A stretch of 64,000 bases of DNA from Candidatus Thorarchaeota archaeon (GTDB lineage Archaea > Asgardarchaeota > Thorarchaeia > Thorarchaeales > Thorarchaeaceae). The notes under the pieces were generated by a model. The model saw only the letters and a list, made by a program, of their open reading frames with translations, did no database searches and was not told the DNA's origin. The translations under genes and the position numbers were made by a program. Position 1 is the first letter of the stretch. Each line of letters opens with the position of its first letter. Of this stretch, positions 6,632 through 28,609 are shown piece by piece. The DNA is taken from contig JAEORO010000069.1 of assembly GCA_016840855.1 (NCBI GenBank), positions 17,825-81,824 on the forward strand, in the 5' to 3' direction.

Positions 6632-6647
6632 TTCAGTACAAAAATAT

Positions 6648-6682
6648 GGGGAGTGTATCACGCTTCCCGATTCTCTCTTTTT
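6648..6682 (+). terminator. Hairpin plus pyrimidine tract
   Basis: GGGGAGTG-TATCA-CGCTTCCC (8 bp, 2 G-U) followed by TTCTCTCTTTTT. Confidence 0.5.
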
Positions 6683-6747
6683 AGAAAGAAAATAAATAGT
6701 AGAGATATTAACATGGATTTAATAAATTAAATCTGGAAAGGGTTCTG

Positions 6748-7863: not shown

Positions 7864-7921
7864 GATTGTAGGGGGCATAGATTGTATCAAAGCTCTTTAC
7901 AAATTAGACAATTGTGCGGTA

Positions 7922-8623: not shown

Positions 8624-8786
8624 CTTTCATAGTCCTCTTTCTGCAGGCTCATGTTATCAGCTAATTAACATTTGTGATTTTGAGCTAAATCGCAACCGTC
8701 TGGTTTAAGAACTGCCCTGTTCGAACACAATTTAGCAACTCCGGGTGACCTTTAAAAAAGGGGTACTTCAATGGTGAAATAGCACA

Positions 8787-9716: not shown

Positions 9717-9765
9717 AAGAAACGACTTTGATCATACTTTGATATTGTAAGGATAGCTATAGTTG

Positions 9766-9805
9766 AAAAAAAAAGAAATGAAGAAGAGAGCTTGCGGCTC
9801 TCTTC
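9766..9805 (-). terminator. Hairpin plus poly-T terminator downstream of the APC permease
   Basis: GAAGAGAGC-TTGCG-GCTCTCTTC perfect 9-bp stem (9783-9805); A-run at 9766-9774 reads as a U-tract on the minus strand. Confidence 0.7.
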
Positions 9806-9819
9806 AAATATTCTATAAT

Positions 9820-12887: not shown

Positions 12888-14084
12888 TTAGTCTTCAGGG
12901 AAATAGTCAGATTCGAGAATTTCAGGATTAACAATACCAGCAGATACAGCCATTATTTCAGCAACATCCAAGACCCTGATATCCAAGTCAGCTTCATACA
13001 TACCATGTGTCAGATTCATCTCGCAAGCTGGACAGATGGTCGTCATTAACTCAGCATTAGTACCAACAAAATCTCTGATTCGTTCGTCTGATACCTTCTG
13101 AGAGTAATCAGGAAACATGATTTTGCATCCTCCACCACCGCCGCAACAGAATGCATGCTCACGATTTCTTGACATCTCAATGAATTCCAAACCAGGGATT
13201 GATTCGAGAACTTTTCGTGGTGAATCGTAGATATCTCGATAACGTCCTATCTCGCATGGGTCGTGATAGGTGACTTTCTTCGTAACTGAATTCTTGAATT
13301 TCAGCTTCTTTTGTTCAACAATCTCAAGCAATACTTCACTAGTATGACGTACCTTAATTGGTAACTTATCCAAACCTAGAAGATGAGGATACTCCTCGTC
13401 AAATGCTCTAAAGCAACTAGGACAAGGAGTTATGATTTCATTAACTCCACGATCCTGCAATTTCTTCAAGTATGCTTTTGCATACTTCTTTGCATCTTTC
13501 ATGATTCCTGTTACCCAATAGGGGGTACCGCAGCATTTCTGATCATCACCTAAGAAATCTAAATCATACCCAGCAGCTTGAAGCAACCGTACAAGGATGT
13601 TTGTTTTCTCCTTGAAACGATGACTAGCTAGGCATCCCGGATAAAACAAAGTCCCTGATCCTTTGTTGAATTCAAGTCCTGCAGTCCACTTGGTATGTTC
13701 CTTGACAGAGTCTGCAAAGATGTTACCTGACGATGTGACTGTTTCAGCCATATTTGTTCCAGCTTCAGGGATTTTTATTCCTTGGTTTATGAAGTCCTGC
13801 CGCATAGCCTTTGTAATCTCAATTACATCAATTTGAGCTGCTTTCTTACACTCCTCTCTACACCTTCCACACATAAAGCATCCAAAGATTCTTTCTGCAA
13901 GTTCTTCAGAATATTCCAGCTTACCCTCAAGAATTGACCGGGCAATCGCCATTCTACCTCTTGCTGTAGAAGACTCCCAGCGCTGTGTGAAAATTTCAGG
14001 ACATCGGTCATTGTAATCGAATCCACGGCAGAACTCACATCTCCCGCAAGCATAGATCATGTCTTTGTATTGCTCAATTTTCAT
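12888..14084 (-). CDS. Fe-S oxidoreductase (GlcF/HdrD-like: two 4Fe-4S sites plus two CCG domains)
   Basis: CGRCEFC...CP, CFMCGRCREEC, YPGC, CCG, CPSC, YHDPC, CCGGGGG, CPAC. Confidence 0.9.
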   Translation of the reverse strand: MKIEQYKDMIYACGRCEFCRGFDYNDRCPEIFTQRWESSTARGRMAIARSILEGKLEYSEELAERIFGCFMCGRCREECKKAAQIDVIEITKAMRQDFINQGIKIPEAGTNMAETVTSSGNIFADSVKEHTKWTAGLEFNKGSGTLFYPGCLASHRFKEKTNILVRLLQAAGYDLDFLGDDQKCCGTPYWVTGIMKDAKKYAKAYLKKLQDRGVNEIITPCPSCFRAFDEEYPHLLGLDKLPIKVRHTSEVLLEIVEQKKLKFKNSVTKKVTYHDPCEIGRYRDIYDSPRKVLESIPGLEFIEMSRNREHAFCCGGGGGCKIMFPDYSQKVSDERIRDFVGTNAELMTTICPACEMNLTHGMYEADLDIRVLDVAEIMAVSAGIVNPEILESDYFPED

Positions 14085-15484
14085 TGCAGTTCTTCCTCCG
14101 GAATGAAAATTCCACGTTGCAAGATATTCTTTGGATCCAATGTCTTCTTTAGTGTCTTAAGAAGCCTGTAGTATCCTGTGTTTCGCTCAGCGACGAAGCT
14201 TCGAAGACCGTCCCGTCCACCAATTCCATAAGGAACAACTGGACCATTGAGAGTTATTTCATCAATCTCATGTGCTATCTTCACTAGCTCTTTCCATTCT
14301 TCTGGCTCCTTGTAATTAGTCACCATGAAGGCTAACCAATCCCTTGGTAGAATCTGTCCCCCAAAACCCGCTTTCGTGTATCCTCTTTTCTCTATGAGTT
14401 CCTCTTTCCAAATTCTATACAAGAAGGTTATATCATCAATTCGAAGAGATCCTGCTCCAAAGAAGTGCCAGACACCTGTGTTGAAAAGGTCTGTTAGTCC
14501 CGTCAAAATTCTACCAAAATAATCATCAGCTGGAGCGCGATCGCCTATTTCTCCACCAAGCTCATTGATTTTCGCTATTATCATCTTCTTCCGATGGTCA
14601 ACAATTTCCTGCTCGTAACCGAAAATATCCATCATTAAGAAGAGCACTTCAGGTGCTGTTGGAGCAACCCAGAGGTATATGCCTTGCATGTACTCATCAC
14701 CTACATGCTGGTTGATGAAGTGACCAAACTCAATAACATCATCAAGTGTCTTCATTGTGGCGGTTAACCGCTCTGAGATATCAGTGGTTGGTCGAACTCG
14801 CAAGGTTAATTCAGTACAGACTCCAAGAATTCCTTCTGCACCAATGAACATACCAGCGAGATCAGGACCGAGACATTGACGCTTGAATTTACCTGCACTT
14901 GGCCATGCTGCTGACCCAGTTTCTACTACATCTCCATTTGGCAAGACCATCTCCAAAGAGATGATATCTTGGTTGCCATGGAAGCCAAACTTAGCTGTGG
15001 AATGAGGTCCACCTCCTGCCTTCATGACCGACCCACCAACAGTCATTGCAGGACCTCCAGCTTCACTACAAAGATATGTGAGTCCCTGCTTTCTCAACTC
15101 TCGGTCTAATTTCGCCCATGTGCAGTTGGGTTGCACTGTTGCTACAAGGTCTCTCGTATTGATTTCAATGACCTTATTCAAGCGTCCCATATCAAGCATA
15201 ATTCCAGGTTCTTGCGGGAGATAGGCATCCCAATGAGAAGTGCCTCCCCCACGTATGTATACCGGAATTTCATGACTGTTTGCAATCTTTAGAATGGTTT
15301 GAATCTCTTCTCTAGATTCGGGTAGGACAACATGAGTTGGTATTTTCTGCGCTGCAGGGCTAAGGTCACGACTATATGGAATCAGGTCGAACTTTTTATC
15401 GGTGACTCGATTCGGACCTACAACCTCTTGAAGAAGGCTTGTAACCTTCTTAATATCGACCATCATGAATCGCTCCAATGACAC
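14081..15484 (-). CDS. FAD-binding oxidoreductase (GlcD/D-lactate dehydrogenase, VAO superfamily)
   Basis: RGGGTS, LEMVLPNG, GPDL.GMFIGAEG.LGV.T, K..LDP.NIL. Likely start near 15466; 4-nt overlap with the Fe-S gene. Confidence 0.9.
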   Translation of the reverse strand: MSLERFMMVDIKKVTSLLQEVVGPNRVTDKKFDLIPYSRDLSPAAQKIPTHVVLPESREEIQTILKIANSHEIPVYIRGGGTSHWDAYLPQEPGIMLDMGRLNKVIEINTRDLVATVQPNCTWAKLDRELRKQGLTYLCSEAGGPAMTVGGSVMKAGGGPHSTAKFGFHGNQDIISLEMVLPNGDVVETGSAAWPSAGKFKRQCLGPDLAGMFIGAEGILGVCTELTLRVRPTTDISERLTATMKTLDDVIEFGHFINQHVGDEYMQGIYLWVAPTAPEVLFLMMDIFGYEQEIVDHRKKMIIAKINELGGEIGDRAPADDYFGRILTGLTDLFNTGVWHFFGAGSLRIDDITFLYRIWKEELIEKRGYTKAGFGGQILPRDWLAFMVTNYKEPEEWKELVKIAHEIDEITLNGPVVPYGIGGRDGLRSFVAERNTGYYRLLKTLKKTLDPKNILQRGIFIPEEELQ

Positions 15485-15584
15485 CAGAATAGTATAAGAT
15501 GTCCAGAGTAGTGCCCACCGATTAATTAAAGACTACGGTCTGAACCCGATTTAAGAAGAGATTAGAAAAATTAGAGGAATAGGA

Positions 15585-16718
15585 ATGAACATGAAACCTA
15601 GGGAGAGATTTCATGCTGCTGTTAATCATGAAGAGCCTGATCGAGTACCGATGGACTATTGGACAACTCCACAAGCATATGAGAACTTACGGGATTATTT
15701 AGCCATAACTGCTCCAGAAACACAAGAATGGGGAATAATGGCTACATGGAAAACATCGGAAGAGCTATTGAAACGTCTTAATGTTGATTTTAGACGAGTA
15801 TACATGAAATCCTCAGCTAGTTTTGCACCTCAGCCACTTCCAGATGGGTCTATTGAAATTGAGTTCAAATGCGGTATGAAAGTAATAGGAGGTTACAACG
15901 AAGTCACCTACTATCCTTGGGCTGATTTTACGGAAGTTGAACAAATCGAGGATTTTGATTGGATTGATCCAGATGATCCATCAAGATTGGATGGAGTTAG
16001 GGATTGGGCTGAATATCTACATGAGAGAACAGATTATGCAGTTGTAGGAATGGTTGGAGGGCCTTGGGGTGTTTTCGAGATTGTGGCTCATTATATGCGA
16101 GGGTTTGACAAGTTCCTAATCGACCTGCTAAGAAGACCAAACCTAGCGGATGCAATGATGGAGAAGAGCATGAAACTTGCCTTAGAGATGAATCGAGTCT
16201 TCTTGGATGAAGTTGGAGAGTATTTAGACATCGTGCAAGTTGGGGATGATCTTGGACATCAAGATGGTCTTCTCATAAGTCCAAGAGTATACAGAAAAAT
16301 GGTAAAACACAGACACAAGAGAATCTATAGTGATATTCATAAAAGAGCGCCTCACGTGAAAATTCTGTATCACTCGTGTGGTGCAATCGAGCCTATGATA
16401 GAAGACCTTCTTGAAGTTGATGTTGACATCTTGAATCCGATTCAGCCACTTGCAAAGGGAATGGATTCTGTTGAACTCAAGAAGAAATATGGGGATAGGC
16501 TAACATTTCATGGAGGGATAGATCTACAACACGCTATGTCAGCTCAAGGTACAGTCAACGATGTGCGAGCAGAGGTTGATAGACGAATAAAAGCGTTAGC
16601 ACCTGGAGGCGGCTACATACTCGCGCCTGCACATAACATACAACCAGAATCGACTCCAGAAAAAATCCTTGAGCTCTATGACTACGCATCTAAGAAAGGT
16701 GTGTATCATTTACGTTGA
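15585..16718 (+). CDS. Uroporphyrinogen decarboxylase / MtaA-CmuA methyltransferase-family protein
   Basis: PRERF...HEEPDRVP, MRGFD, GDDLG.Q, YHSCGAI, LNPIQP, FHGGID.Q, GGGYIL.PAHNIQ. Confidence 0.9.
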   Translation: MNMKPRERFHAAVNHEEPDRVPMDYWTTPQAYENLRDYLAITAPETQEWGIMATWKTSEELLKRLNVDFRRVYMKSSASFAPQPLPDGSIEIEFKCGMKVIGGYNEVTYYPWADFTEVEQIEDFDWIDPDDPSRLDGVRDWAEYLHERTDYAVVGMVGGPWGVFEIVAHYMRGFDKFLIDLLRRPNLADAMMEKSMKLALEMNRVFLDEVGEYLDIVQVGDDLGHQDGLLISPRVYRKMVKHRHKRIYSDIHKRAPHVKILYHSCGAIEPMIEDLLEVDVDILNPIQPLAKGMDSVELKKKYGDRLTFHGGIDLQHAMSAQGTVNDVRAEVDRRIKALAPGGGYILAPAHNIQPESTPEKILELYDYASKKGVYHLR

Positions 16719-16724
16719 GTAGAG

Positions 16725-17393
16725 CTAAGGGATTGGTCGCTCTTTGTGAAGGTCATGAGGGTCTTTTCCTTCATCTAATTTTTCAGACCACCACTTATCA
16801 GTCCCCACAACTGCTTCTGCGTGTCTTAAAACATCCTCAATTCGACTAGCTGGAATCACAATAATTCCATCACCATCTCCAAATACTAAATCTCCTGGAT
16901 TCACAGTGACTCCACCGCAGACTATAGGACTTTGGACCGACTCCATATCTAAACGGCCTCTCATTGTACCGGGATGACGACCGCGGGCAAAAACTGGGAA
17001 ATTTAATTTATCAATATCATAGATATCTCGGGAGGTGCCATCAACAACTGCTCCGCGAACACCTCGCTTTAAACCAATCTTCGTTAATATCTGCCCCCAT
17101 GCTGAGCAATCATTTGCGCCAGCCATGTCAATAACAAGAATGTCACCATCTGAGGCTTCGGTCCCCAGACTCATGAATACATCAAGTTGATTCTCGTCAT
17201 ATGGTCGATTCGCAGGAGCGCGTTTTAGTTTCCCAGTTCGTGCGAATCCAGCCATTCGGTTATTTTTTGTTAGAGGTGTAATTCCTCTGTCCATGCATAC
17301 CTGTCCAAGTCCAACCTCATCTGCAGCATCTGAAAGAGCTGCAACATAGAGTTTCATTGTACGTTTGATAATTAAAATTCTATCAGTCGTCAT
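16725..17393 (-). CDS. RraA / HMG-CHA aldolase family protein
   Basis: SDA, AWG...T, GAVVDG..RD, FPVFARG, GGV.V.PGDLVFGDGDGIIVIP; start adjusted to the ATG at 17393. Confidence 0.85.
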   Translation of the reverse strand: MTTDRILIIKRTMKLYVAALSDAADEVGLGQVCMDRGITPLTKNNRMAGFARTGKLKRAPANRPYDENQLDVFMSLGTEASDGDILVIDMAGANDCSAWGQILTKIGLKRGVRGAVVDGTSRDIYDIDKLNFPVFARGRHPGTMRGRLDMESVQSPIVCGGVTVNPGDLVFGDGDGIIVIPASRIEDVLRHAEAVVGTDKWWSEKLDEGKDPHDLHKERPIP

Positions 17394-17398
17394 AGAAG

Positions 17399-17872
17399 TC
17401 ACTTCCTTTCCCAACGATAAATGCAGAAATCATCGCCACGCATCATGCACTTGGGCAATGACATCGACACATTAGGATCAATAGCTTGACCAATTCCCTC
17501 GTCTATTTTAGTTACATGCTCGCATATATCCAGACTAGCTCCTCGCGCCTTGAAGGATTCTATCCATGGACAATACGTGACCTTCAAATCAAAACGTTTG
17601 GCAGTCTGATTTTCTACAGAGAGTTCAAATCCAAAGTAAGGATAGCTTCCATGAAAGAACTCGAAAATGGATTGTAGGTCACCTTTTCTCAGAGTGCCAT
17701 TCTTGATTCCAGCATTACCAAGCTCCAAACCATGAAGACGATTGACCTCCCCAATCTCTTTCAATCCTTCATCACCCATCAGTCGGCGGATCGTTTCAAC
17801 ATAGATTACATGTGTATCTGCAAGAGTGTTCATGTTGGTTTTTCGAACTTCCTCGGCACTTGGATTGGACAT
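17399..17872 (-). CDS. V4R-like / L-2-amino-thiazoline-4-carboxylate hydrolase-family small protein
   Basis: V.YCPW...ICE...D......P......KCMMRGDDFC.Y four-Cys pattern. Confidence 0.75.
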   Translation of the reverse strand: MSNPSAEEVRKTNMNTLADTHVIYVETIRRLMGDEGLKEIGEVNRLHGLELGNAGIKNGTLRKGDLQSIFEFFHGSYPYFGFELSVENQTAKRFDLKVTYCPWIESFKARGASLDICEHVTKIDEGIGQAIDPNVSMSLPKCMMRGDDFCIYRWERK

Positions 17873-18018
17873 AGTTAAGCACAAACCTTACTGAGTTGGA
17901 TGATTAATTACCAGATGTAACTTAAAACTTCTCTGAAGTACATGATGATTTTTCTTAAAGTATGATGGTCCATTAGATAGGTTATATAAACTAGGAATAT
18001 TCTCGCAGCATCAGAAGG

Positions 18019-19188
18019 GTGACACCTATGCTTGCTGAGAGAAATATAGATGTTCCAGCTAGTGAAATCCGTAAAATCTTCAACATGATTATTGGAAGAA
18101 CTGATGTCTTTGACATGACTGTTGGCATACCTGATTTCGACACACCTGAACACATCAAGGAAGCTGCAAAGAAAGCTATAGACGATGGATTTACTAGGTA
18201 CACTCACAATGCAGGTTATATAGAGGTTAGAGAAGCACTTGCGCAGAAACTCAAGCGAGACAATAATATCGAAGCAGATCCAGTTAGTGAAATGGTACTA
18301 ACCGCTGGAGGTATGGGGGCACTCGTTCTAGCTAATTTGGTGATGATAAATCCTGGTGATGAGGTGATTTATCCTGATCCTGGTTTTGTAAGTCATTACG
18401 CTCACATAAAGCTAGCAGGAGGTATACCAATCCCCATACAATTGAAGAAGGAAAATAGGTTTGGTCTTTTGTCGGAGGATGTAGAACACAAAATTACTCC
18501 TAAGACGAAAATGATTGTTCTTAACTCACCCAACAATCCAACTGGTGGAGTCACTCCCAATAGTGAATTGAAAAGAATTGCTGAACTATGTATTGAGAAT
18601 GACATCTATGTCATAGCTGACGAAGCATACGAGAAGTTTAGATATGTAGATGAAGAACCACTGTTCATCGGTTCTCTGCCAGAAATGAAAGAGAGGACAG
18701 TTTCGATATTTTCGCTTTCTAAAACATATGCAATGACAGGCTGGCGAATAGCTGTGGCTACAGGATCCAGTGAGATTATCGGTGCTATGACCAAACTACA
18801 AGAACATGTAATCGCAATGCCGACTTCAATTGCACAAAAAGCTGCAGCAGCAGCGGCTGTTGGCCCTCAAGACTGCGTGGCTGATATGCTCAAAACATTT
18901 CGAAAACGACGAGACCTTATTACTAAGGGATTAAACGATATTGAGGGAGTTGAAATAGCTCCTCCTGGAGGCGCATTCTACGCATTCCCAGATGTTTCTG
19001 CGTATGGCGTGAAATCATATGATCTTGTTCACAAAATTCTGAATGAAACCAATGTTGTTACAATCCATGGAACAGCTTTTGGAAAATACGGTGAGGGATT
19101 TCTCAGACTTTGCTATGCAGTTTCAACAGAGAGAATTAATGAGGCTCTCAGTAGATTGGATAGCTATTTACCAAAATTGCTGCATTAG
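18019..19188 (+). CDS. Class I/II PLP-dependent aminotransferase (AspB-like)
   Basis: G.PDFDTP, YT..AG..E.R, NSPNNPTG, DEAYE, SLSKTYAMTGWR, GAFY, G.AFG..GEG.LRLCYA. Confidence 0.92.
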   Translation: MTPMLAERNIDVPASEIRKIFNMIIGRTDVFDMTVGIPDFDTPEHIKEAAKKAIDDGFTRYTHNAGYIEVREALAQKLKRDNNIEADPVSEMVLTAGGMGALVLANLVMINPGDEVIYPDPGFVSHYAHIKLAGGIPIPIQLKKENRFGLLSEDVEHKITPKTKMIVLNSPNNPTGGVTPNSELKRIAELCIENDIYVIADEAYEKFRYVDEEPLFIGSLPEMKERTVSIFSLSKTYAMTGWRIAVATGSSEIIGAMTKLQEHVIAMPTSIAQKAAAAAAVGPQDCVADMLKTFRKRRDLITKGLNDIEGVEIAPPGGAFYAFPDVSAYGVKSYDLVHKILNETNVVTIHGTAFGKYGEGFLRLCYAVSTERINEALSRLDSYLPKLLH

Positions 19189-19237
19189 ATATACCAGATG
19201 CGAAAAGTAATGAACAGAAAAATCGGTAGTTTGAGAG

Positions 19238-21550
19238 ATGACGTTCCGTAGTAAGCAACTCAAGCAAAGAATGCTTGAAGCGGTTCCAACGATATCATCT
19301 GAGAGAGCTGTCCTTTTCACAAATTACGTGAAAGAAAATTGGTCCAAACCAGTGATATTACGGAATGCAGGCGCTTTTGCTCATGTTCTGGATAATATGA
19401 CTATTAGAATAGAGCCGGATGAACTAATCGTTGGTAATATGGGACCGACACCACGTTCGTGTCAGGTGTTTCCAGAGTATAGCTGGAAGTGGATTGAAGA
19501 AGAACTAGATCGGTTTGATAAACGTAGGACTGAACGCTTCTCAATAAGCGAGAAGGATAAGCAGAATCTCCGGGAAGTTTTCAAATTCTGGAAAGGTAAG
19601 AGTACCGCAGAAATTTCTGGAGAACTAATACCTAATGAATCTAAAGAAGCATCTAGCGTCGGATTATTTACGATTGGGGCGCCTGGGACGGGAATTGGTC
19701 ATGTAATTGCAAATTATGAGAACGTTCTGAGGAAGGGATTCCTGAGAATCCTAGATGAGATAGAAGACAAAGAAGGTGATTACTTCGATGCAGTCCGTAC
19801 TGAGATAATTGCAGTTCTCAGGTTTGCAGAACGATTCTCTCACCTTGCCTGCGAAATGGCGGAGATTGAAACAGATGAACTGAGAAGGCATGAGTTAAGA
19901 GAGATATCAAGAATCTGTAATAAGGTCCCAGCTAAACCTGCAGGAACGTTTCATGAAGCTATCCAATCTTTCTGGTTTATCCATTTATTGATGCAGACTG
20001 AATCAAATGGTCATTCAATGTCTACAGGTAGATTTGATCAGTACATGTTTCCATACTATAGAACAGACATTAAGAATGAACGGATAGATCGAGAAAGAGC
20101 AATTGAATTGCTTGAGCTACTCTGGATTAAGCTGACTTCTCTCATCAAGATTAGAAATGAATACTACAGTATTGCATTTGCAGGACATCCAATGTTTCAG
20201 AACCTCACGATTGGTGGTCAAAACGCAGATGGCTCTGATGCTACAAATGATCTCACGAAACTAATCCTTGAAGCCACTGCAGACATCAGAGTCACTCAAC
20301 CAAGTGTGTCATTCCGTTGGCATAAGAACACACCTGAGGACATCAAGCTGAAAGTTGTTGATGTAATCTCGAAAGGTCTGGGAATGCCAGGACTCTTCAA
20401 TGATGATGCAATCATACCAATGATGATAGAAAAAGGCACGAAACCTCCAGAGGCTCATGAATATTCTGTTCTTGGTTGTGTTGAGCCAATTATCGGTGGA
20501 AAATCTGATCCTAGACAGAACATAGGGTATGTCAACTTACCGAAGATTCTTGAGATTGCCTTGAACAACGGAAGAGATCCTAAGTCAGGTAAAGTAATTG
20601 GGAGGGAAACAGGTGACCCTCGGGATTTCAAATCGTTCAGTGAACTTTGGCTGGCGTATGAAGAACAGATTGACTACACGATAGAATTACTGACACGCGC
20701 AGACAGAGTTGCAGCTGCTGTACATGCCCAAAATACACCAACGCCATTCATCTCAGCCTTACTTGAGGGATGCAATGAATCTGGCAAAACAATGCAAGAA
20801 GGTGGAGCAGTCTATAATTCAGGAGGGATTATGGGAGTTGGAATTGCGATTGCTGCTGACTCACTAGAAGTCCTCCAGAAATTCGTTTTCGAAAAGAAAG
20901 AGATATCGATGAATGAGCTACTTGAGATACTTTCTAGCAATTATGAAGGTCATGAAGAGCTCAGAATAAGATTAGAGAATGACCCTTCAAAATATGGGAA
21001 TGATATTGAAAGAGTGGATTTCCTTGCTAGAGATATTGGACGAGCTTTTTGTAATTCAATACAGAGCAGAATGACAACAAGGAATGGACCATATCATGGT
21101 GCTCTTTTCTCAGTATCGATGTACATTCCGCAAGGAGAGGTTTTAGGTGCCACTCCAGACGGCAGGAAAGCTGGCCATATGATCTCAGATGGAGTTTCTC
21201 CAACACAGAATAGAGATGTGAATGGACCTACTGCTGCGATGAAATCCGTTTCAAGGCTTGACCATGGATTGTGCTATAATGGTACACTCTACAACATGAA
21301 ATTCACACCAGACTTCTTTGACACTGAATCAAGAAGAAAGAAATTCATCAATATGGTTGACACGTATTTTAGGATGGGAGGATTCCATGTCCAATTCAAT
21401 GTAGTTTCTCGAGAAACATTAGAAGATGCAAAAGTCAACCCTCTACAGCATAGAGATCTTATTGTTCGAGTAGCAGGATATAGCGCGTACTTTATTGAGC
21501 TAGATCCGTTTGTTCAAGACGAAGTCATTGCACGAACTGAGTTCTCATAA
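19238..21550 (+). CDS. Glycyl-radical enzyme, PFL2/glycerol-dehydratase-like eliminase branch
   Basis: Gly loop LIVRVAGYSAYF, single-Cys loop GCVEP, ESNGHS.S.GRFDQY, GATPDGRK. Confidence 0.93.
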   Translation: MTFRSKQLKQRMLEAVPTISSERAVLFTNYVKENWSKPVILRNAGAFAHVLDNMTIRIEPDELIVGNMGPTPRSCQVFPEYSWKWIEEELDRFDKRRTERFSISEKDKQNLREVFKFWKGKSTAEISGELIPNESKEASSVGLFTIGAPGTGIGHVIANYENVLRKGFLRILDEIEDKEGDYFDAVRTEIIAVLRFAERFSHLACEMAEIETDELRRHELREISRICNKVPAKPAGTFHEAIQSFWFIHLLMQTESNGHSMSTGRFDQYMFPYYRTDIKNERIDRERAIELLELLWIKLTSLIKIRNEYYSIAFAGHPMFQNLTIGGQNADGSDATNDLTKLILEATADIRVTQPSVSFRWHKNTPEDIKLKVVDVISKGLGMPGLFNDDAIIPMMIEKGTKPPEAHEYSVLGCVEPIIGGKSDPRQNIGYVNLPKILEIALNNGRDPKSGKVIGRETGDPRDFKSFSELWLAYEEQIDYTIELLTRADRVAAAVHAQNTPTPFISALLEGCNESGKTMQEGGAVYNSGGIMGVGIAIAADSLEVLQKFVFEKKEISMNELLEILSSNYEGHEELRIRLENDPSKYGNDIERVDFLARDIGRAFCNSIQSRMTTRNGPYHGALFSVSMYIPQGEVLGATPDGRKAGHMISDGVSPTQNRDVNGPTAAMKSVSRLDHGLCYNGTLYNMKFTPDFFDTESRRKKFINMVDTYFRMGGFHVQFNVVSRETLEDAKVNPLQHRDLIVRVAGYSAYFIELDPFVQDEVIARTEFS

Positions 21551-21625
21551 GGAGATACATTACGACAGATTTAACATTTCCATGATTGAGTATGTTATTG
21601 TTAAACCTCTAGTGTGGTGTGAATA

Positions 21626-22621
21626 ATGGGTTATGATGTAGTTACTTTTGGAGAAGTGATGCTTCGACTCTCTCCTCCTGACTTCAAAAGGTTCGAACAA
21701 ACAGAGAGCTTCAACGCTAATGCAGGTGGCGCAGAAATGAATGTCTCTGTAGCTTGCGCGCGATTAGGATTAAATTCTGCATATGTCACAAAGCTCGGTG
21801 ACAACTCTATTGGACATTTCATTAGGAATAAAGCTCGAGAACATGGAGTTGACACATCACACATCCTCTGGGATGCTAGTAATAGGTGTGGGATCTATTT
21901 CGTTGAGTTTGGAGCAGCTCCTCGCACAAATCGCGTGATCTATGACCGAAAGGAATCTGCAATTAGTAAGATAAAACCTGGCGAGGTAGATTGGAAAAAG
22001 ATATTGAAAGGAACTAAGCTATTTCATACAAGTGGGATTACGCCTGCGCTTAGCGCGAATTGTGCAGAAGTGACGAATGAAGCACTCAAGACATGCAAAG
22101 AATTGGGTGTGAAGGTGTCCTATGACGTAAATTACAGAGGAAAACTATGGACATCAAAAGATGCGCAGAAGTTCACAGAACCTGCTTCTGAGTTCATTGA
22201 TATATTAATCACAACTGAAGAAGACACCAAGGTTGTCTATGGGATTGAGGGCAAGGACTATGAAGATGTTGCAGCGAAACTAATTGATAAGTTCGGATTC
22301 GAGGTAGTTGTCATTACTCTAAGAGAAACCCCATCGGTCTGGTTCAACAAATGGTCTGTTTTTGCTTATTCTAATGGCAAGGTTTACAGAAGTCCAGTCT
22401 ATGATGTGGAGATTGTAGATAGATTAGGTGGAGGCGACTCTTGCAGTGCTGGATTTATTTATGGATACATTGAGTTGAAGGACTTACAGAAAGCGGTTGA
22501 TTTTGGCTCGGCTTTCTCTGCATTGAAACACTCCGTTCCTGGAGATCTAGCATTTGTATACAAGTCAGAGGTTGAAGAGCTCATCAAAGGGCGTCAGCGA
22601 GGATTACGCATTGAGAGGTGA
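21626..22621 (+). CDS. kdgK: 2-keto-3-deoxygluconate kinase (PfkB family)
   Basis: FGEVMLRL, GGAE.NV, R.GIYFVE.G, V.YDR..SA, SGITPAL, SYDVNYR.KLW, IVDRLGGGDS..AG. Confidence 0.85.
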   Translation: MGYDVVTFGEVMLRLSPPDFKRFEQTESFNANAGGAEMNVSVACARLGLNSAYVTKLGDNSIGHFIRNKAREHGVDTSHILWDASNRCGIYFVEFGAAPRTNRVIYDRKESAISKIKPGEVDWKKILKGTKLFHTSGITPALSANCAEVTNEALKTCKELGVKVSYDVNYRGKLWTSKDAQKFTEPASEFIDILITTEEDTKVVYGIEGKDYEDVAAKLIDKFGFEVVVITLRETPSVWFNKWSVFAYSNGKVYRSPVYDVEIVDRLGGGDSCSAGFIYGYIELKDLQKAVDFGSAFSALKHSVPGDLAFVYKSEVEELIKGRQRGLRIER

Positions 22622-23277
22622 AAAGTGTGTGGAACAAGGAAAATACAATGAAACTGATTCATGATACAGCACTTATTCCAATAATCCGTGTTGAGTCGGC
22701 AGATATTGCATTCAAAGTGGCGGATGCATTTCTGCAAGGCGGAGTCAATATTATAGAAGTGACCATGAGTGTTCCGGGTGCAATAGATGTCATGAAACAG
22801 CTTTTGGAGAATTATGGGAAAAAAGTCCTAATTGGTACAGGAACAGTGGTGGACAGCAAAATGGCGAAAGAAGCCATCAAAGCTGGTAGTAAATTCATAG
22901 TCAGTCCGAATTCTTCTAAGAGTCTGATTGAAACCGCTAACAAACACTCGACACCCATAATTCCTGGAGCTCTTACACCAACTGAGATATTCAATGCGTA
23001 TTCAATGGGTGCAGATGCTGTGAAAGTCTTTCCATGTGGAAATGTAGGAGGTGCAGAGTATCTAAAGGCCATAAGAGCACCATTACCGCATATTCCTCTT
23101 GTTCCAACTGGAGGAGTCGATTTAGATTCTGCAGGACCAATGCTTGAAGCAGGTGCTTTTGCGTTAGGAGTAGGTGGAGCCATAACAGACAAGAAAGCAA
23201 TCAAGGAAGGTAAGTATGAGGTCATCACTGAAAATGTGAAAAAATTCCTTGAGATTGTGAAGGAATATCGAAGTTAG
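22618..23277 (+). CDS. eda: KDPG / KHG aldolase (bacterial Eda type)
   Basis: IIR, IEVT, IG.GTV, FIVSP, PGALTPTE, VKVFP (Schiff-base Lys), PTGGV; 4-nt overlap with kdgK. Confidence 0.9.
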   Translation: MKSVWNKENTMKLIHDTALIPIIRVESADIAFKVADAFLQGGVNIIEVTMSVPGAIDVMKQLLENYGKKVLIGTGTVVDSKMAKEAIKAGSKFIVSPNSSKSLIETANKHSTPIIPGALTPTEIFNAYSMGADAVKVFPCGNVGGAEYLKAIRAPLPHIPLVPTGGVDLDSAGPMLEAGAFALGVGGAITDKKAIKEGKYEVITENVKKFLEIVKEYRS

Positions 23278-24119
23278 CTATTGGTTCGTAGGATGGCAAT
23301 CATGTGAGTGCCACCATCTATTGCACCAGGCTCCTTGCAGAACTCAAGTTCCCATTTCAGGAACATGTTCCACTTCTCTTCATCACCCATTAACTCTGTA
23401 AGGTATTCCTCATTAAACAAACCTGTTGATAGAAAATTTGCTGCCGATATGTCTAGAATTTCAACAGGATATCTAGAAAGAAGTTCTCGATATTCACTCC
23501 AGCGAAACATATGGCATTGATGAGTTCCTTTGTCTGCCATCTTTCCTAGGACATCTCCTGTATCCACGATGGCATCGAAATTCTCCAAGCCCATATGATC
23601 CCATTCATCAAAGACATTCCTGATGAGATGATGAAATGTACCAAGACATGACATCACACTGGTGAGGATGATTCCACCAGGTTTTGTTACTCTGATCACC
23701 TCGTCCAAAGCCTGGTTAACGAATTCAAGAACATAGCTTAGAGGACCGCCAAATACCACTGTTGAGTCAAATTCATTGTCAGGGATTCCATCTAGATTGA
23801 GAATATCTAATTTCCGTCTCCACTCAATGCAATCTTCATATCCAGCTTCTCTGACTTTGTCTTCATTCATCTTCAGCTGCGCGTTGGCAATATCAACTAT
23901 CCCAATTCTAGCTCCTATCTTTGCCAGTTCAATCGTAAACCTACCTGGACCAGGCCCTATCTCAAGAACTCGATCACCTTTCTTGATGTACTTCCGAAGA
24001 TAGTATTGGTGAATATGAAACTGAACCTTACCTCTAGGAGTTCGGTCGAGTCGTTCCCATTCTAGATGAGCGTCTTTGTCAAAATGACCTTCAATTATCT
24101 TCGAGTCGTACTTTTTCAT
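23274..24119 (-). CDS. Class I SAM-dependent methyltransferase
   Basis: EWERL, VLEIGPGPGRF, FD..V..GGPLSY, RV.KPGG. Confidence 0.88.
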   Translation of the reverse strand: MKKYDSKIIEGHFDKDAHLEWERLDRTPRGKVQFHIHQYYLRKYIKKGDRVLEIGPGPGRFTIELAKIGARIGIVDIANAQLKMNEDKVREAGYEDCIEWRRKLDILNLDGIPDNEFDSTVVFGGPLSYVLEFVNQALDEVIRVTKPGGIILTSVMSCLGTFHHLIRNVFDEWDHMGLENFDAIVDTGDVLGKMADKGTHQCHMFRWSEYRELLSRYPVEILDISAANFLSTGLFNEEYLTELMGDEEKWNMFLKWELEFCKEPGAIDGGTHMIAILRTNS

Positions 24120-24262: not shown

Positions 24263-24589
24263 ATGACTCAAGACTTACTTGAACTCATGCAGGAAAGAAT
24301 TACTATTGGACTTGAACGAGAGAAGACATTAGAAGCCATCGAAGGATGGGAGCGAACAGCACAACTGAGCTTGAAAGAAGGGCCAGAATATCACTTCATT
24401 GTAAAAGATAACAACATCACAGTTCATGAAGGTCCTATAGACAATCCTGACATGAGAATACAAAGCGATGAGGATACAATTCGAAAACTATTCCTTGAGG
24501 AAATGAGCGCAGCATCAGCACTACTGAAAAGGAAGCTGAAAGTGAAAGGTTCGGCTTCAGACCTTATGAAAATAAGACATATCTTCTAG
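24263..24589 (+). CDS. SCP2 sterol/lipid-binding domain protein
   Basis: 108 aa; V.EG...NPD..I......L......A.SA....KLKVKG...DLMK. Confidence 0.8.
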   Translation: MTQDLLELMQERITIGLEREKTLEAIEGWERTAQLSLKEGPEYHFIVKDNNITVHEGPIDNPDMRIQSDEDTIRKLFLEEMSAASALLKRKLKVKGSASDLMKIRHIF

Positions 24590-24617
24590 CAGTAGGTCAT
24601 CTTCTGGAGGACATAGT

Positions 24618-26039
24618 TTGGATAAGACGATAGTGGAAGAACTATCAAAGATTGTTGGTGAAGAATATATCTCTACGAGAAGAGATGTACTTCTTGCTTA
24701 TTCCACTTCTGCGTCAATGAGTTATGATACTGTAATGCCAAGTGCAGTAGTCAGACCAGGAACGACAGAAGAAGTATCAAGAGTTCTAAAAGTAGCAAAC
24801 AAATACAAGATTCCCGTGACACCAAGATCTGGTGGTTCAAGTCTCCAAGGTGAAGTCATTCCAGAAGCAGATAGTCTAGTAGTCGAACTTTTGAGACTTG
24901 ATGATATTGTCTTGTATAAGGATCTACGGTCAGTTACAGTTGGAGCAGGTGTTACTTTTGGTGCCTTAGATAAGTATCTGAATGAACATGACCTCTGGGT
25001 TCCGTTCTATCCAGGATCTTCTTTGGTTGCAACATATGCAGGAAATGTTGCTGTAAATGGAGCAGGGTTTGGGTCAGGAGTCTTTGGATGTATAGCAGAA
25101 CTCGTGATGGGGCTTGAAGTTGTTCTACCAGATGGAACTATTATCCAAACAGGTTCTGAAGCGAATCCTAACTCACCAGGACCCTTCCTGCGGTATGCCT
25201 TTGGTCCAGACCTCACGGGTCTTTTCATAGGGTCTCTTGGTAGCTTTGGAATCATCACAAAGGTCTCTCTGAAGACTCATAAAAGAATGAGATTCTTTGA
25301 TTATAACACATATGGGTTCGACGAAGTTGAGAATGCAGAGAGATTCTTGTTAGAGTTGAAAGAGAACGAGATCAATGCTATTTGGATGGCTCTTTATGAG
25401 GGTAGTATTCTTGATTTCTTTCTTGATATGGTAGGTGAAGAGTATGGTGTTCCAGAATATGATTGGCCAAAGTTCACTGTGTCTGTGGCTATAGGACGAG
25501 TAAGGATAGATCAACTCAAGAGTGATATGAGAGCTGCAAAATCCGTTTGCGAACAATTAGGTGGACATGTCATCGGAATCAAGGAACTACCTAAGAACGA
25601 GTGGGAGGACCGCATGAGAGAGCTTGCAAGGTCTTCATATGTTCATGGTTGGCACTGGCGAATCCTTTACCATCACCAAACGCCTATCAATTGGCACAAA
25701 TCAGTAGAATCTTTGTGGTCAGTTATGGATGAGTATGGTGTCCTTGGACACACAGCAGGGTTCCAATCAGGGCATGCTAGCTACAACTTATATCCGCAGC
25801 TATATTTCGACCCGCAGGATAAGGAGGAGGAAATGAAAGTCAAAGAGGCTCACAGAGACCTCTGTCACCGACTTTTCAAAACAGGAGCAGTACCTTTCAA
25901 GCTGGCAAGATACTGGGTAGATGGAATTTCTGAGATGGACAGTTATCTCCAATTTTTAAACGAAATGAAGAGGAATGTTGATTCAAATGAGATTCTGAAT
26001 CCAGGAATTCTGCCAAAACCGAAGGGAGGGGAAAACTAG
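24618..26039 (+). CDS. FAD-binding oxidoreductase (VAO/GlcD superfamily), paralog 1
   Basis: PRSGGSSL.G, GLEVVLPDG, GPDLTGLFIGSLGSFGIIT, D.NEILNPG. Confidence 0.9.
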   Translation: MDKTIVEELSKIVGEEYISTRRDVLLAYSTSASMSYDTVMPSAVVRPGTTEEVSRVLKVANKYKIPVTPRSGGSSLQGEVIPEADSLVVELLRLDDIVLYKDLRSVTVGAGVTFGALDKYLNEHDLWVPFYPGSSLVATYAGNVAVNGAGFGSGVFGCIAELVMGLEVVLPDGTIIQTGSEANPNSPGPFLRYAFGPDLTGLFIGSLGSFGIITKVSLKTHKRMRFFDYNTYGFDEVENAERFLLELKENEINAIWMALYEGSILDFFLDMVGEEYGVPEYDWPKFTVSVAIGRVRIDQLKSDMRAAKSVCEQLGGHVIGIKELPKNEWEDRMRELARSSYVHGWHWRILYHHQTPINWHKSVESLWSVMDEYGVLGHTAGFQSGHASYNLYPQLYFDPQDKEEEMKVKEAHRDLCHRLFKTGAVPFKLARYWVDGISEMDSYLQFLNEMKRNVDSNEILNPGILPKPKGGEN

Positions 26040-27446
26040 ATGGATGCGAAAATAGTTGCTGGTTTCGAGGAGATTGTAGGTAAAGAATTCGTGTCCACAA
26101 AAGCAGATGTGCTACTCACTTATTCTCAAACAGCATCTATGGCTGCAGATCCAGTTATTCCTGAATTGGTTATTCGTCCAGCGAATACAGAGCAGGTTTC
26201 CAAAATACTGATGCTAGCGAACGAGCACAAGATACCAGTAGTTCCAAGATCGGGTGGTTCAAGTCTGCAACAGGAAGCTATACCAAAACCAGGTTCAATT
26301 GTCATAGAACTCCTGCGGTTAACAGAAATTAAACTCTACAAAGACCTCCGATCAGTAGCCGTAGGTGCTGGAATTACCTATGGTGAATTGGATAAATTCC
26401 TTAGCAAGCATGATCTTTTTTTGCCTGTGTGCCCGGAATCTGCGCTTGTCTGTACAGTCGCAGGGAATATTGCAGTAAATGGCGCAGGACCTGGCTCAAG
26501 CCTGTATGGATGTACTGGGGAGATGGTTCTTGGACTTGAAGTTGTTTTGCCTAACGGTTCGATTATCCAAACAGGCTCTGAAGCCAATCCTTATGCTCCA
26601 GGACCATTTATTAGATATGCATTTGGCTCAGACATCACAGGTCTCTTCATTGGCTCACTTGGCAGTTTTGGTATTATCACAAGAGCATCTATGAAGATAT
26701 TCAGACGACCAAAATATCTAGATTATAATTTGTACGGATTTGATACTGCAGAGCAAGCAGAACAATTTCTGGACGAGATAAAACAGAATGATATTAGCGG
26801 CCTTTTTACCTCAATATATTCTGGTGAGGTTCTTAGTTTATTTTGGGACTTATTGGCAGAGGAGTTTGGTTACCCAACCATTGAATTTCAGAATCGGTCA
26901 GTATCGATGACAATTGGCAGAAATCGTGAAGACTTAGTGAAGAGTGATGCTAAACTTGCGTCTGAAATCTGCAAGAGTCTTGGAGGAAGGGTTTTGGATG
27001 CGAAGGAACTTATTCATTTTGAATGGGAAGGTCGTCTATGGAATTTTGTGAGAGCTTGCTATGCTCACGGATGGCACTGGCGAACAATATACCACCATCA
27101 AGCTCCTAGAAATTCCCACAAATCAGTTGATCTAATCATGGAAGCGATGGACCGGTATGGGTTCATGGGACACACTGCTGGTTTTCAAACTGGACATTCT
27201 TCTATGAACATGTATCCTCACATGTACTTTGATCCACAAGATAAAGAGGAAGAGATGAAAGTGCGTAATGCTCACAAAGAACTTGCCAAATCCCTCTTCA
27301 AATCTGGTGCAGTGCCCTTCAAACTTGCTGAGTATTGGAAAGATGCGATTGAAGACATGGATGATTATATGACATTTCTCAAGTTAATCAAGCATACAAT
27401 TGACCCGAATAACATAATGAATCCTAGAGTACTTGGAGGAATCTAG
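26040..27446 (+). CDS. FAD-binding oxidoreductase (VAO/GlcD superfamily), paralog 2
   Basis: Same motifs; clearly a tandem paralog of 24618-26039 (shared HGWHWR..YHHQ, GHTAGFQ.GH, YFDPQDKEEEMKV). Confidence 0.9.
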   Translation: MDAKIVAGFEEIVGKEFVSTKADVLLTYSQTASMAADPVIPELVIRPANTEQVSKILMLANEHKIPVVPRSGGSSLQQEAIPKPGSIVIELLRLTEIKLYKDLRSVAVGAGITYGELDKFLSKHDLFLPVCPESALVCTVAGNIAVNGAGPGSSLYGCTGEMVLGLEVVLPNGSIIQTGSEANPYAPGPFIRYAFGSDITGLFIGSLGSFGIITRASMKIFRRPKYLDYNLYGFDTAEQAEQFLDEIKQNDISGLFTSIYSGEVLSLFWDLLAEEFGYPTIEFQNRSVSMTIGRNREDLVKSDAKLASEICKSLGGRVLDAKELIHFEWEGRLWNFVRACYAHGWHWRTIYHHQAPRNSHKSVDLIMEAMDRYGFMGHTAGFQTGHSSMNMYPHMYFDPQDKEEEMKVRNAHKELAKSLFKSGAVPFKLAEYWKDAIEDMDDYMTFLKLIKHTIDPNNIMNPRVLGGI

Positions 27447-27448
27447 TA

Positions 27449-28609
27449 ATGACAGAGATTGACCTCGATGACCTCATTGAGAACCTGATGCAATGCCGAA
27501 GATGCGGGATTTGCAGAAATGCTGTGTATGAAGACAGAGGATTTGATGGAGTCTGTCCAGTCTGGAAAAACTCGTATGGATTTGAAACTAGTTTCATGCG
27601 TGGTAGAATTCAAGTTGCATTAGCTCTCCTTGAGGGCACTCTAGAGAGAACAGCAGAGAATGCTGAAGCACTATTTACTTGCACACTATGTGGGAACTGC
27701 ACTGAAATCTGTGCCGCTGAATTTGATCCAACAGATTGTCTCGAAAAAGTCAGAGAAGTTCTTAATGAAATTCCAAATGATGTTCGGGATGAGCTCACGA
27801 AGAGGATAATGGAATATAACAATCCCTATACAGAGAGTGGTTTAACCAAGCGTGACTGGACTGCAGAAGTTGGTTTTGAAATCCCACTCAAAGGCGAAAT
27901 TCTCTATTATACTGGATGTACTGCAGCAACAAAACTACCAAACATTGCTAAATCAACGGTGAAAATCCTTAAAGCTGCTGGAGTCGATTTTGGAGTCCTC
28001 GCAGACGAGCCATGTTGTGGTAGTGTTATGTTGAGGACTGGGAGAAGAACAGATGCGACTTTAAATGCTGAAAAGTTTGCTGAGAGAATGAGGGATGAAG
28101 GAATCAAAAAAATCGTTGTAACCTGTGCTGGATGTCTTAATACACTGCGAGAAGATTATCCAAAGCTCAAAGTGAATATTCCTGAAGCGAAGCATGTGGT
28201 TGAAGTCCTTCCCAGAATAATCCGAGAGAAGAAACTCAAATTGAAACCTCTTGGCAGAGATATTAAAGTTACATATCACGATCCATGTCATCTCTCCAGA
28301 GCTTTAGGGCTATATGAAGAACCAAGAGATTTAATCAAAATGATTCCAGGTCTACAGCTTGTGGAAATGGAAACCACAAGAGAAACTGCTATGTGCTGTG
28401 GAGCAGGTGGTGGACTTCGTTCTTTTGATTCAGAACTTTCAAAGAGAATAGCAGCTGATAGGGTGAAAAGTGCTCATACAGTAGAAGCAGAAATGATTGT
28501 GACTTCTTGTCCGTTCTGTGAGCATAATCTCAAAGAAGGAGCTAGAAAAATAAACAGCTCTGTGCGTGTAGTTGATGTTGTGGATCTTCTAGCTGAAAGT
28601 CTAGATTGA
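27449..28609 (+). CDS. Fe-S oxidoreductase (GlcF/HdrD-like, CCG domains)
   Basis: CRRCGIC...CP, CTLCGNC.E.C, CCG, CAGC, YHDPCH, CCGAGGG, CPFC. Confidence 0.9.
   Translation: MTEIDLDDLIENLMQCRRCGICRNAVYEDRGFDGVCPVWKNSYGFETSFMRGRIQVALALLEGTLERTAENAEALFTCTLCGNCTEICAAEFDPTDCLEKVREVLNEIPNDVRDELTKRIMEYNNPYTESGLTKRDWTAEVGFEIPLKGEILYYTGCTAATKLPNIAKSTVKILKAAGVDFGVLADEPCCGSVMLRTGRRTDATLNAEKFAERMRDEGIKKIVVTCAGCLNTLREDYPKLKVNIPEAKHVVEVLPRIIREKKLKLKPLGRDIKVTYHDPCHLSRALGLYEEPRDLIKMIPGLQLVEMETTRETAMCCGAGGGLRSFDSELSKRIAADRVKSAHTVEAEMIVTSCPFCEHNLKEGARKINSSVRVVDVVDLLAESLD

Follow-up and report, generated by a model that had tools for sequence, protein, structure and literature searches.

The window analyzed here is a 64,000-nucleotide stretch of DNA from a Candidatus Thorarchaeota archaeon (assembly GCA_016840855.1, contig JAEORO010000069.1, positions 17,825 to 81,824 of the forward strand), and all window positions given below are counted from its first letter. 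Between 18019 and 23277, four open reading frames (ORFs) on the same (+) strand encode, in this order, an aminotransferase, a glycyl radical enzyme (GRE), a kinase resembling 2-keto-3-deoxygluconate (KDG) kinases, and an Eda-type aldolase for 2-keto-3-deoxy-6-phosphogluconate (KDPG); the last two genes are called kdgK and eda below. As judged from its sequence and predicted fold, the GRE is a complete, intact, oxygen-sensitive enzyme of the 1,2-eliminase type, and it is very probably an archaeal eliminase of new specificity, restricted to a single family of Thorarchaeota. It is quite possible, if somewhat short of probable, that it makes up a single functional unit with KdgK and Eda, as the producer of their keto-deoxy acid. 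This well-delimited clade from Asgard archaea combines a distinctive conserved pocket with a testable pair of metabolic partners, and its gene currently goes under the name of formate acetyltransferase, or even benzylsuccinate synthase, in Asgard genomes.

Family, catalytic motifs, and substrate pocket of the GRE

We compared the GRE (P0001) with solved structures and with profile models. The best match in the PDB was the glycerol dehydratase (GD) 1r8w (E value of 1e-202 and 678.5 bits over residues 3 to 768). Two 1,2-propanediol dehydratases (PD) came next (E values of 6.6e-188 and 7.6e-187), followed by CutC, YbiW, HypD, and PflD, while a true pyruvate formate-lyase (PFL; 1h16) reached only 5e-41. 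With an alignment of 33 sequences as input, AlphaFold2 gave a model with a predicted local distance difference test (pLDDT) score of 93.7 (89 for the block holding the signature loop described below) and a predicted template modeling (pTM) score of 0.92. In Foldseek, this model aligned with PD 9rco and GD 1r8w at a template modeling (TM) score of 0.96 and 40 to 41% identity. Among the NCBIfam models, the GRE passed only the subfamily model TIGR01774 (751.5 bits; cut-off, 678.2). It stayed below the cut-off of every equivalog, including HypD (602.5 bits against 1100), HpfG (594.2 against 1000), CutC (577.8 against 1050), HpsG (532.6 against 1000), and the PflD-type NF007437 (582.1 against 1109).

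The hallmarks of the superfamily are all present: a PFL-like barrel joined to a C-terminal glycine radical domain, the RVxG motif, and the cysteine of the Cys loop. C414, R744, and G747 are invariant in our alignment (A1), and RVAGYS is kept across 30 orthologs, one of which has RVAGFS. The Cys loop also carries the C-x-E sequence (C414-V-E416) that PMC13450708 describes, in sections 5.6 and 5.7, as characteristic of eliminases and isomerases among the GREs. In GD, according to section 5.6.1 of the same review, Cys433 takes the hydrogen, Glu435 removes the proton of the C1 hydroxyl, and His164 donates one to the departing C2 hydroxyl; all three residues are matched in the GRE, by C414, E416, and H155, respectively. 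The five motifs on which the initial annotation had relied (GIGH, NGHS, GCVEP, DPRQN, and LFSVS) were all found in the translation, and in a HMMER alignment with 1r8w they pair with GD as it had proposed (Table 1).

Judged by the aligned residues, the GRE has retained the GD/PD pocket at its reactive end and rebuilt it at the far end. At the kept end, the NGHS motif preserves the counterparts of His281 and Ser282 of GD, which we take to be substrate-binding residues. Asp447, Tyr339, and Tyr640 of GD, which presumably hold the third hydroxyl of glycerol, are not kept: N428, F320, and F624 stand at the aligned positions, and Asn645 of GD is replaced by Tyr. In GD, Asp447 is directed toward the distal end of glycerol rather than toward the carbon that loses its hydrogen. 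The hallmark of PD, a G-W-H-D loop together with an L-Y-P-V-S strand (seen in 5i2a, 9rco, and the GD/PD-like representatives), gives way to D-P-R-Q-N and L-F-S-V-S. Among 118 proteins of the family, conservation is at least 97% at D424, R426, N428, F624, Y629, and S528; the corresponding residues of four GD/PD-like representatives are Glu or Tyr, Trp (Ala in one of the four), Asp, Tyr, Asn, and Phe. All 29 intact orthologs, from 11 genera, carry the signature loop D-x-R-x-N, and a pseudogene copy alone departs from it (N to D). These changes (the D-x-R-x-N loop, two Tyr-to-Phe replacements, and Phe to Ser at position 528) suggest a larger, probably anionic polyhydroxy substrate, an anionic group of which Arg426 could bind.

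Measured against its two closest solved relatives, the GRE shares the chemistry end and departs at the substrate end. The GD of Clostridium butyricum (1r8w/1r9d) superposes with a TM score of 0.96, a root mean square deviation of 1.6 Å, and 41% identity, and the Cys-x-Glu sequence, the His of GxGH, NGHS, and RVAGYS are common to both; in contrast to GD, the Thorarchaeota GRE has D-P-R-Q-N for E-G-W-H-D, Phe for Tyr339 and Tyr640, and Tyr for Asn645, and it is archaeal, lacks an adjacent activase, and lies beside a KDG kinase and an aldolase. The PD enzymes (9rco and 5i2a/5i2g) were the top Foldseek matches (TM score, 0.96; 37 to 40% identity), and 5i2a resembles the GRE in having Phe at the Tyr339 position of GD, but the PD enzymes occupy a separate clade in our tree.

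The isolation of this clade was apparent at several scales. A search of 1.84 billion cluster representatives returned the representative of the GRE itself at 72% identity (1281 bits) and the next ones at 43 to 45% (664 bits at 43%), with none between. None of 18 representatives drawn from the family and the neighboring clusters reached the cut-off of a characterized equivalog. In a FastTree phylogeny of 58 sequences, rooted at the midpoint and with support values that are local only, the family came out as a clade supported at 100%, its stem being long (0.62); it was sister (97%) to uncharacterized bacterial clusters bearing only generic or doubtful names and lay outside the clade with the G-W-H-D loop of GD and PD. 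Orthologs of at least 63% identity occurred only in the GTDB family of Thorarchaeota to which the window belongs, in 59 of its 86 genomes, with two further fragments at contig ends, and the best GRE matches in the 314 other genomes of the phylum did not exceed 41% identity. In public records, the orthologs carry unspecific or incorrect names ("formate C-acetyltransferase" and, in one case, "benzylsuccinate synthase alpha subunit"). With no clustering beside a characterized enzyme, and with a pocket that differs from that of GD and PD at positions invariant in the family, the proposal of the initial annotation that this is an eliminase of new specificity is supported.

Relatives outside the family gave little guidance. 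A metagenome scan with the sister-clade protein P0122 found no relative, and one with P0143 found seven loci. Downstream of the GRE gene at a sister-clade locus (L155) are encoded an activase, a MutL-like protein, a B12-binding protein, a GntR regulator, a pyrroline-5-carboxylate reductase-like protein, and a 2-hydroxyacid dehydrogenase; since this amino-acid-type context has no sugar-acid genes, it does not help with the substrate. Section 7 of a June 2026 review (PMC13450708) describes every PFL-like GRE of known function as bacterial and states the archaeal clades to be a gap; it treats PFL2 of Archaeoglobus fulgidus (2f3o) as the one structurally characterized archaeal PFL-like GRE, of debated function. 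PFL2 matched the GRE at an E value of 4.1e-128 and 34% identity in the structural alignment and belongs to another clade.

Table 1. Positions in the window of the gene cluster, its sequence motifs, and flanking elements
Feature	Position	Strand	Basis and remarks
Upstream block: CCG/Fe-S protein, FAD-binding oxidase (GlcD-like), URO-D/MtaA-like protein, RraA-like aldolase, ATC-hydrolase-like protein	12888..17884		Pfam, synteny
TATA-box-like element TTATATAA, ~30 nt 5' of the aminotransferase start	17982..17989	+	Read by eye from the sequence
Class I aminotransferase, 389 aa	18019..19188	+	Pfam Aminotran_1_2, 249.5 bits
Glycyl radical enzyme (P0001), 770 aa, predicted 1,2-eliminase type	19238..21550	+	Pfam PFL-like PF02901, 686.2 bits; Gly_radical PF01228, 117.4 bits
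GIGH, residues 152-155	19691..19702	+	H155 pairs with GD His164 (GVGH) in HMMER alignment to 1r8w; kept in 30/30 orthologs
NGHS, N257-S260	20006..20017	+	Pairs with GD H281/S282 (NGHS); kept in 30/30 orthologs
Cys loop GCVEP, residues 413-417, single Cys	20474..20488	+	C414/E416 pair with GD C433/E435; C-x-E kept in 30/30 orthologs
D424-P-R426-Q-N428 loop, family signature D-x-R-x-N	20507..20521	+	Pairs with GD E443-G-W-H-D447
LFSVS strand, residues 623-627	21104..21118	+	F624 pairs with GD Tyr640 (L-Y640-P-S-S); Y629 where GD/PD have Asn
Glycyl radical motif RVAGYS, residues 744-749, radical site Gly747	21467..21484	+	Pfam Gly_radical at residues 650-753
PfkB-family kinase, KDG-kinase-like, 331 aa	21626..22621	+	Pfam PfkB, 156 bits
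Eda-type aldolase for KDPG and 2-keto-4-hydroxyglutarate, 219 aa	22618..23277	+	PF01081, 155.2 bits; TIGR01182, 189.2 bits (cut-off 156.05)

Linkage and co-inheritance with kdgK and eda

The gene order, the common strand, and the intergenic gaps reported by the initial annotation (49 nt between the aminotransferase and GRE genes, 75 nt between the GRE gene and kdgK, and a 4-nt overlap of kdgK with eda) were recovered from the ORFs. The closest PDB match of the kinase was the KDG kinase of Thermotoga maritima (2afb; E value of 1.6e-85, with the next at 2.4e-44). Against two NCBIfam equivalogs for kinases of KDG and 2-keto-3-deoxygalactonate (KDGal) it scored 304.1 and 175.5 bits, both under the cut-offs (440 and 400). 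The best natural PDB matches of the aldolase were the KDPG aldolases of T. maritima (1vlw and 1wa3), and eda is a single-copy gene, the only PF01081 gene of the source genome (G000; 3.36 Mb in 259 contigs, 92% complete, with the window on contig C257).

The arrangement of the cluster is not due to chance, as it recurs in related genomes. The kdgK gene was found directly downstream of the GRE gene in all 13 assessable loci of a first set (one locus, L018, was too short to assess) and in 12 of 16 further loci, and in two more of the latter the two genes are separated by an inserted gene; the two sets overlap in at least one contig (L016/L138). Counting these two, 14 of the 16 further loci retain the neighborhood, and the adjacency to kdgK and eda is thus not unique to this genome. 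Both insertions are in genus g15 (two genomes; L128:10608-14051 and L127), where a histidine kinase of 1147 amino acids with multiple PAS domains lies between the GRE gene and kdgK. This protein could be a sensor of the pathway substrate.

Of the 86 family genomes, 59 carry the GRE together with Eda; both are missing from 23, of which ten are at least 93% complete. The four exceptions (two with the GRE only and two with Eda only) come from contigs cut at the junction or from a 66%-complete bin. Adjacent genes are expected to vanish together, and shared presence and absence therefore proves little when taken alone. Observations in two genera carry more weight. In genus g9, one genome (G325) has the aminotransferase, GRE, kdgK, and eda genes followed by genes for a thioredoxin, an EamA transporter, and two unnamed ORFs, and in another (G329) the aminotransferase gene directly precedes the same four downstream genes, exactly the GRE gene, kdgK, and eda being gone. 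In genus g2, the order is aminotransferase, kdgK, and eda, and the GRE gene lies elsewhere, beside a thermosome gene. In G312 and G316, this unlinked copy is intact and retains the signature loop. In a third genome of the genus (G315; 97% complete), the unlinked GRE gene has three in-frame stops, kdgK has two, and similarity to Eda is lost after about residue 183, with the aminotransferase and other neighbors intact and a GRE activase not detectable. The state of this one genome fits a chain of events in which activation was lost, the GRE became useless, and the kinase and aldolase then became useless in turn. Elsewhere in the family, G334 has kdgK in two overlapping pieces (residues 27 to 163 and 152 to 331; L129, C3, 6902-7432) beside an intact GRE gene, which suggests a frameshift and could reflect an assembly error or early decay.

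Candidate sources of KDG were sought in the same genomes. The initial annotation had noted no IlvD/Edd or enolase-type dehydratase in the window, and our Pfam scan of its 57 ORFs (16 + 41) agreed, finding no IlvD/Edd, enolase-superfamily, UxuA, or altronate-type dehydratase. The 92%-complete draft of the whole genome yielded no IlvD/Edd, UxuA, altronate/galactarate dehydratase, UxaC, or KduI, and its one weak MR_MLE_C match was enolase. Five other cluster-bearing genomes (96 to 99% complete) contained an IlvD/Edd-type gene in one case, UxuA in none, and a strong MR_MLE match in one, both positives falling in the same genome (G387). Absence from draft genomes is no proof.

Proposed pathway and competing substrates

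We infer the following substrate, product, and order of steps. The activase of the genome would install the glycyl radical at Gly747 in trans, and this radical would pass to a thiyl radical at Cys414, which would take a hydrogen from a hydroxyl-bearing carbon; Glu416 would deprotonate the hydroxyl, and His155 would protonate the neighboring leaving group, which departs. The KDG kinase and KDPG aldolase encoded downstream would form a single working unit with the GRE. The most likely route would be a radical C2-C3 dehydration of a hexonate or a close sugar acid to a 2-keto-3-deoxy acid, to be phosphorylated by KdgK and split by Eda into pyruvate and glyceraldehyde-3-phosphate. Such a route would stand in for the IlvD/Edd, UxuA, or enolase-type dehydratases. 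These classical sugar-acid dehydratases (IlvD/Edd, UxuA, UxaA type, and enolase superfamily) share with the GRE the proposed place in the pathway, the supply of a 2-keto-3-deoxy acid for KdgK and Eda, but they have unrelated folds and nonradical chemistry, and they were not found in the source genome or in four of the five other high-quality genomes that bear the cluster.

A more far-reaching version can be offered only tentatively, and we consider it rather doubtful: that this is the first GRE to act on a sugar acid, yielding KDG or KDGal either from an aldonate, by radical dehydration, or from an anhydro-aldonate, by opening of its ring; that it affords Thorarchaeota a radical, strictly anaerobic entry to a semi-phosphorylative branch of the Entner-Doudoroff type; and that, among archaeal PFL-like GREs, it is the first whose function can be assigned. 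A search of openly accessible literature yielded no paper on a Thorarchaeota GRE-kdgK-eda cluster; as to a connection of GREs with KDG, KDPG aldolase, or keto-deoxy acids, it turned up, among abstracts and passages of PMC6258724, no more than incidental co-mentions. If the product is a keto-deoxy sugar acid, GRE eliminases would gain a new substrate class, and a radical reaction would replace one that is normally carried out by acid-base dehydratases, which would change the scoring of sugar-acid use in Asgard genomes. If the GRE acts on another anionic diol, its specificity would still be new among GREs.

Several observations weigh against a supply of keto-deoxy acid by the GRE. The linkage is confined to one lineage: recurrent linkage to kdgK and eda, which the initial annotation had proposed as a check, held within the Thorarchaeota family and failed outside it, where none of 66 loci of GREs at 36 to 45% identity has kdgK or eda nearby. 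The sole kdgK ortholog found outside the family (G397; 63% identity) sits with eda and an HpcH aldolase gene, without a GRE. Within the family, the evidence from unlinked copies comes from one genus and that from co-decay from one genome. The upstream block is itself largely co-inherited: orthologs of the RraA-like protein occur in 56 of the 86 family genomes, being absent from the GRE-less genomes except G367 and from the GRE-bearing G321 and G324. Since the loss of adjacent genes together is also expected, co-distribution may mark an island and not consecutive steps. The activation step poses a difficulty of its own, in that neither the window nor any of the 38 ortholog loci encodes an activase, and in six GRE-bearing genomes, including the single-contig G368, none was detected at E ≤ 1e-40. 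The 57 ORFs of the window include neither glycoside hydrolases nor sugar transporters, and the rest of the window is of amino-acid, organic-acid, or housekeeping character. A source of KDG that is hard to recognize, for example, a reductase of unsaturated uronates of the short-chain dehydrogenase/reductase type, may also exist. As to the pocket, Arg426 replaces a residue next to Asp447, a far-end contact in GD, which would suit an anionic group distal to the diol better than a C1 carboxylate. The characterized relatives covered in the consulted sections of PMC13450708 dehydrate terminal diols to aldehydes and do not act at C2-C3 of acids.

The aminotransferase gene, which the initial annotation had listed with the other three, provides a further argument of this kind, as it is the first gene of the run and is not dedicated to the GRE-kdgK-eda unit. 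Orthologs with 63 to 70% identity persist, in unrelated contexts, in four genomes that lack the GRE, kdgK, and eda (G317, G326, G329, and G330). The closest PDB matches of the protein are the Asp/aromatic aminotransferases of Pyrococcus (1gd9 and 1dju). A possible role as a glucosaminate-type pyridoxal phosphate-dependent lyase that makes KDG was considered; the top NCBIfam scores of the protein are under cut-off (GntC, 331.6 bits against 415; aminotransferase A, 327.6 against 575).

It is conceivable that the GRE instead converts a small, anionic terminal diol into an aldehyde by dehydration, as do GD, PD, and HpfG, and belongs to the same organic-acid island as KdgK and Eda without being their supplier; glycerate, erythronate or threonate, 3,4-dihydroxybutyrate, dihydroxypropanesulfonate, glycerol phosphate, and the terminal diol of a keto-deoxy acid are candidate substrates. 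We regard this as a possibility, if on balance an unlikely one. The residues at the reactive end are those of GD and PD, which are also the best structural matches; the invariant Arg lies in the loop that faces the distal substituent; and the whole island is co-inherited, with its 2-hydroxyacid dehydrogenase-like proteins, RraA-like aldolase, and Eda. In the parts of PMC13450708 that bear on this, all characterized C-O eliminases of the type use R-CHOH-CH2OH substrates or hydroxyprolines, and HpfG, the dehydratase of (2S)-3-sulfopropanediol (2,3-dihydroxypropane-1-sulfonate, DHPS), is a GD-like enzyme for an anionic diol. In our comparison by profile score, HpfG was among the best sub-threshold NCBIfam matches (632.7 bits for P0110 and the 594.2 bits given above for P0001), although the latter is far under the cut-off, and no sulfonate-related genes were seen in the window. 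Dehydration of such a diol would leave unexplained the exact absence of GRE, kdgK, and eda in G329 and the joint decay of the unlinked GRE, kdgK, and eda in G315, and it would leave KdgK and Eda without any recognized source of KDG; moreover, Pfam identified no aldehyde dehydrogenase or reductase adjoining the GRE. A plain B12-independent glycerol or 1,2-propanediol dehydratase, placed beside kdgK and eda incidentally, would agree with the nearest solved structures, with F320 as the Phe of PD at the Tyr339 position, and with the plainly unrelated contexts of other GREs in this genome, such as that between genes for ribosomal protein L3 and an RNA methyltransferase. We consider it very improbable: GD and three PD-type sequences keep G-W-H-D and L-Y-P/S where 118 family proteins have D-x-R-x-N and L-F-S, identity is only about 40%, the clade lies outside the one with G-W-H-D, and both co-inheritance and co-decay tie the GRE to kdgK and eda.

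Ring-opening chemistry would keep the link with the kinase and aldolase. An isomerase of the YbiW/PflD kind could open the ether ring of an anhydro-sugar acid, for instance, 3,6-anhydrogalactonate from red-algal galactans, by removal of hydrogen from C2 and cleavage of the C3-O bond, and would deliver 2-keto-3-deoxy-galactonate or -gluconate straight to the kinase and aldolase. There is precedent in section 5.7 of PMC13450708 for ring-opening of anhydro-sugars by a GRE followed by an aldolase, the GRE in question acting on a sugar derivative, though the aldolase there is of the fructose 6-phosphate aldolase type and here is Eda. YbiW and PflD, ring-opening isomerases of anhydro-hexitol-6-phosphates (8id7, 8id0, and 8yjo), align with the GRE at TM scores of 0.95 to 0.97 and share its C-x-E sequence; the kinase resembles bifunctional KDG/KDGal kinases (the 304.1-bit match), and the DNA runs holding the stretch are labeled as marine sediment, mangrove, and soil metagenomes. 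However, both isomerases are more distant than GD and PD (E values of 6.5e-157 and 1.7e-148, against 1e-202 for GD), and no galactan-degrading or anhydro-sugar dehydrogenase genes occur among the 57 ORFs, so that there seems to be little chance that the GRE works in this way. The remaining option, a pyruvate or 2-ketoacid formate-lyase, accords with database names such as "formate C-acetyltransferase" and with the release of pyruvate by Eda, and we give it almost no credence in view of the single Cys of GCVEP where PFL has Cys-Cys, a TIGR01255 score of 148.5 bits against a cut-off of 994.2, and the poor match to PFL 1h16.

Surroundings of the cluster and other GREs of the genome

The GRE gene may simply use the promoter of the aminotransferase gene, since a TATA-like box is seen 5' of the latter and none is obvious in the 49-nt gap between the two genes, where inspection by eye of the sequence found no element comparable to TTATATAA. 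The public sequencing runs containing the stretch comprise 20 DNA runs from six studies, with no RNA run among them.

An activase matching above cut-off occurs once in the source genome (TIGR02494, 319.8 bits against 174.35), on contig C105 adjoining another GRE gene, and activases were found in 73 of the 86 family genomes. On C105 (L095:7865-11238, minus strand), the activase gene lies directly downstream of that for a fourth, divergent GRE of 799 amino acids that is under the TIGR01774 cut-off; genes for a major facilitator superfamily (MFS) transporter and GNAT acetyltransferases are nearby. One activase may serve four GREs in this genome. The second GRE, on C247 (L093:7860-10226, minus strand), matches the trans-4-hydroxy-L-proline dehydratase equivalog (1250.9 bits; cut-off, 1100) and sits between ribosomal protein L3 and the RNA methyltransferase mentioned above; its Cys loop reads GCVTIS in a BLASTP alignment, with Thr, and not Glu, as the second residue past the Cys. 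It would represent an apparent HypD from an Asgard archaeon. A further GRE copy, on C230, is found among unrelated genes. With the other GREs of the genome (C247, C230, and C105) in such contexts, gene context here is not always informative.

Two sets of GlcD-like FAD oxidase genes, each with a CCG/4Fe-4S subunit, flank the cluster (12888-15484 and 24263-28609) and are kept in most relatives. One of them is a GlcD/E/F-like triple behind an SCP2 protein, and both resemble 2-hydroxyacid dehydrogenases. Closer to the cluster lie genes for a URO-D/MtaA-like methyltransferase (15585-16718) and a CpaM-like methyltransferase (23274-24119). In some relatives (L016:11143-14571 and L137:12139-15570), a RACo corrinoid activator, a second URO-D protein, and a B12-binding protein follow eda, so that a corrinoid methyl-transfer system adjoins the island. 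In the genome from another Asgard family that carries the outlying kdgK ortholog (L147, G397:C13:34000-53000, 2598-10956), an HpcH/HpaI aldolase gene is followed by kdgK and eda, and two 2-hydroxyacyl-CoA dehydratase D-components and two activator ATPases of the BcrAD/BadFG type are encoded upstream.

Farther out in the window, genes for an Asp/Glu/hydantoin racemase, two S-Me-THD-like (DUF917-type) proteins, an MFS transporter, and an amino-acid permease (2735-7863 and 9820-11382) form a possible utilization cluster for hydantoin or amino-acid derivatives. Two small GTPases of the Ras/Roc family and a Roadblock/LC7 protein, typical "eukaryotic signature" genes of Asgard archaea, are encoded at 38646-39254, 40605-41201, and 45821-46147.

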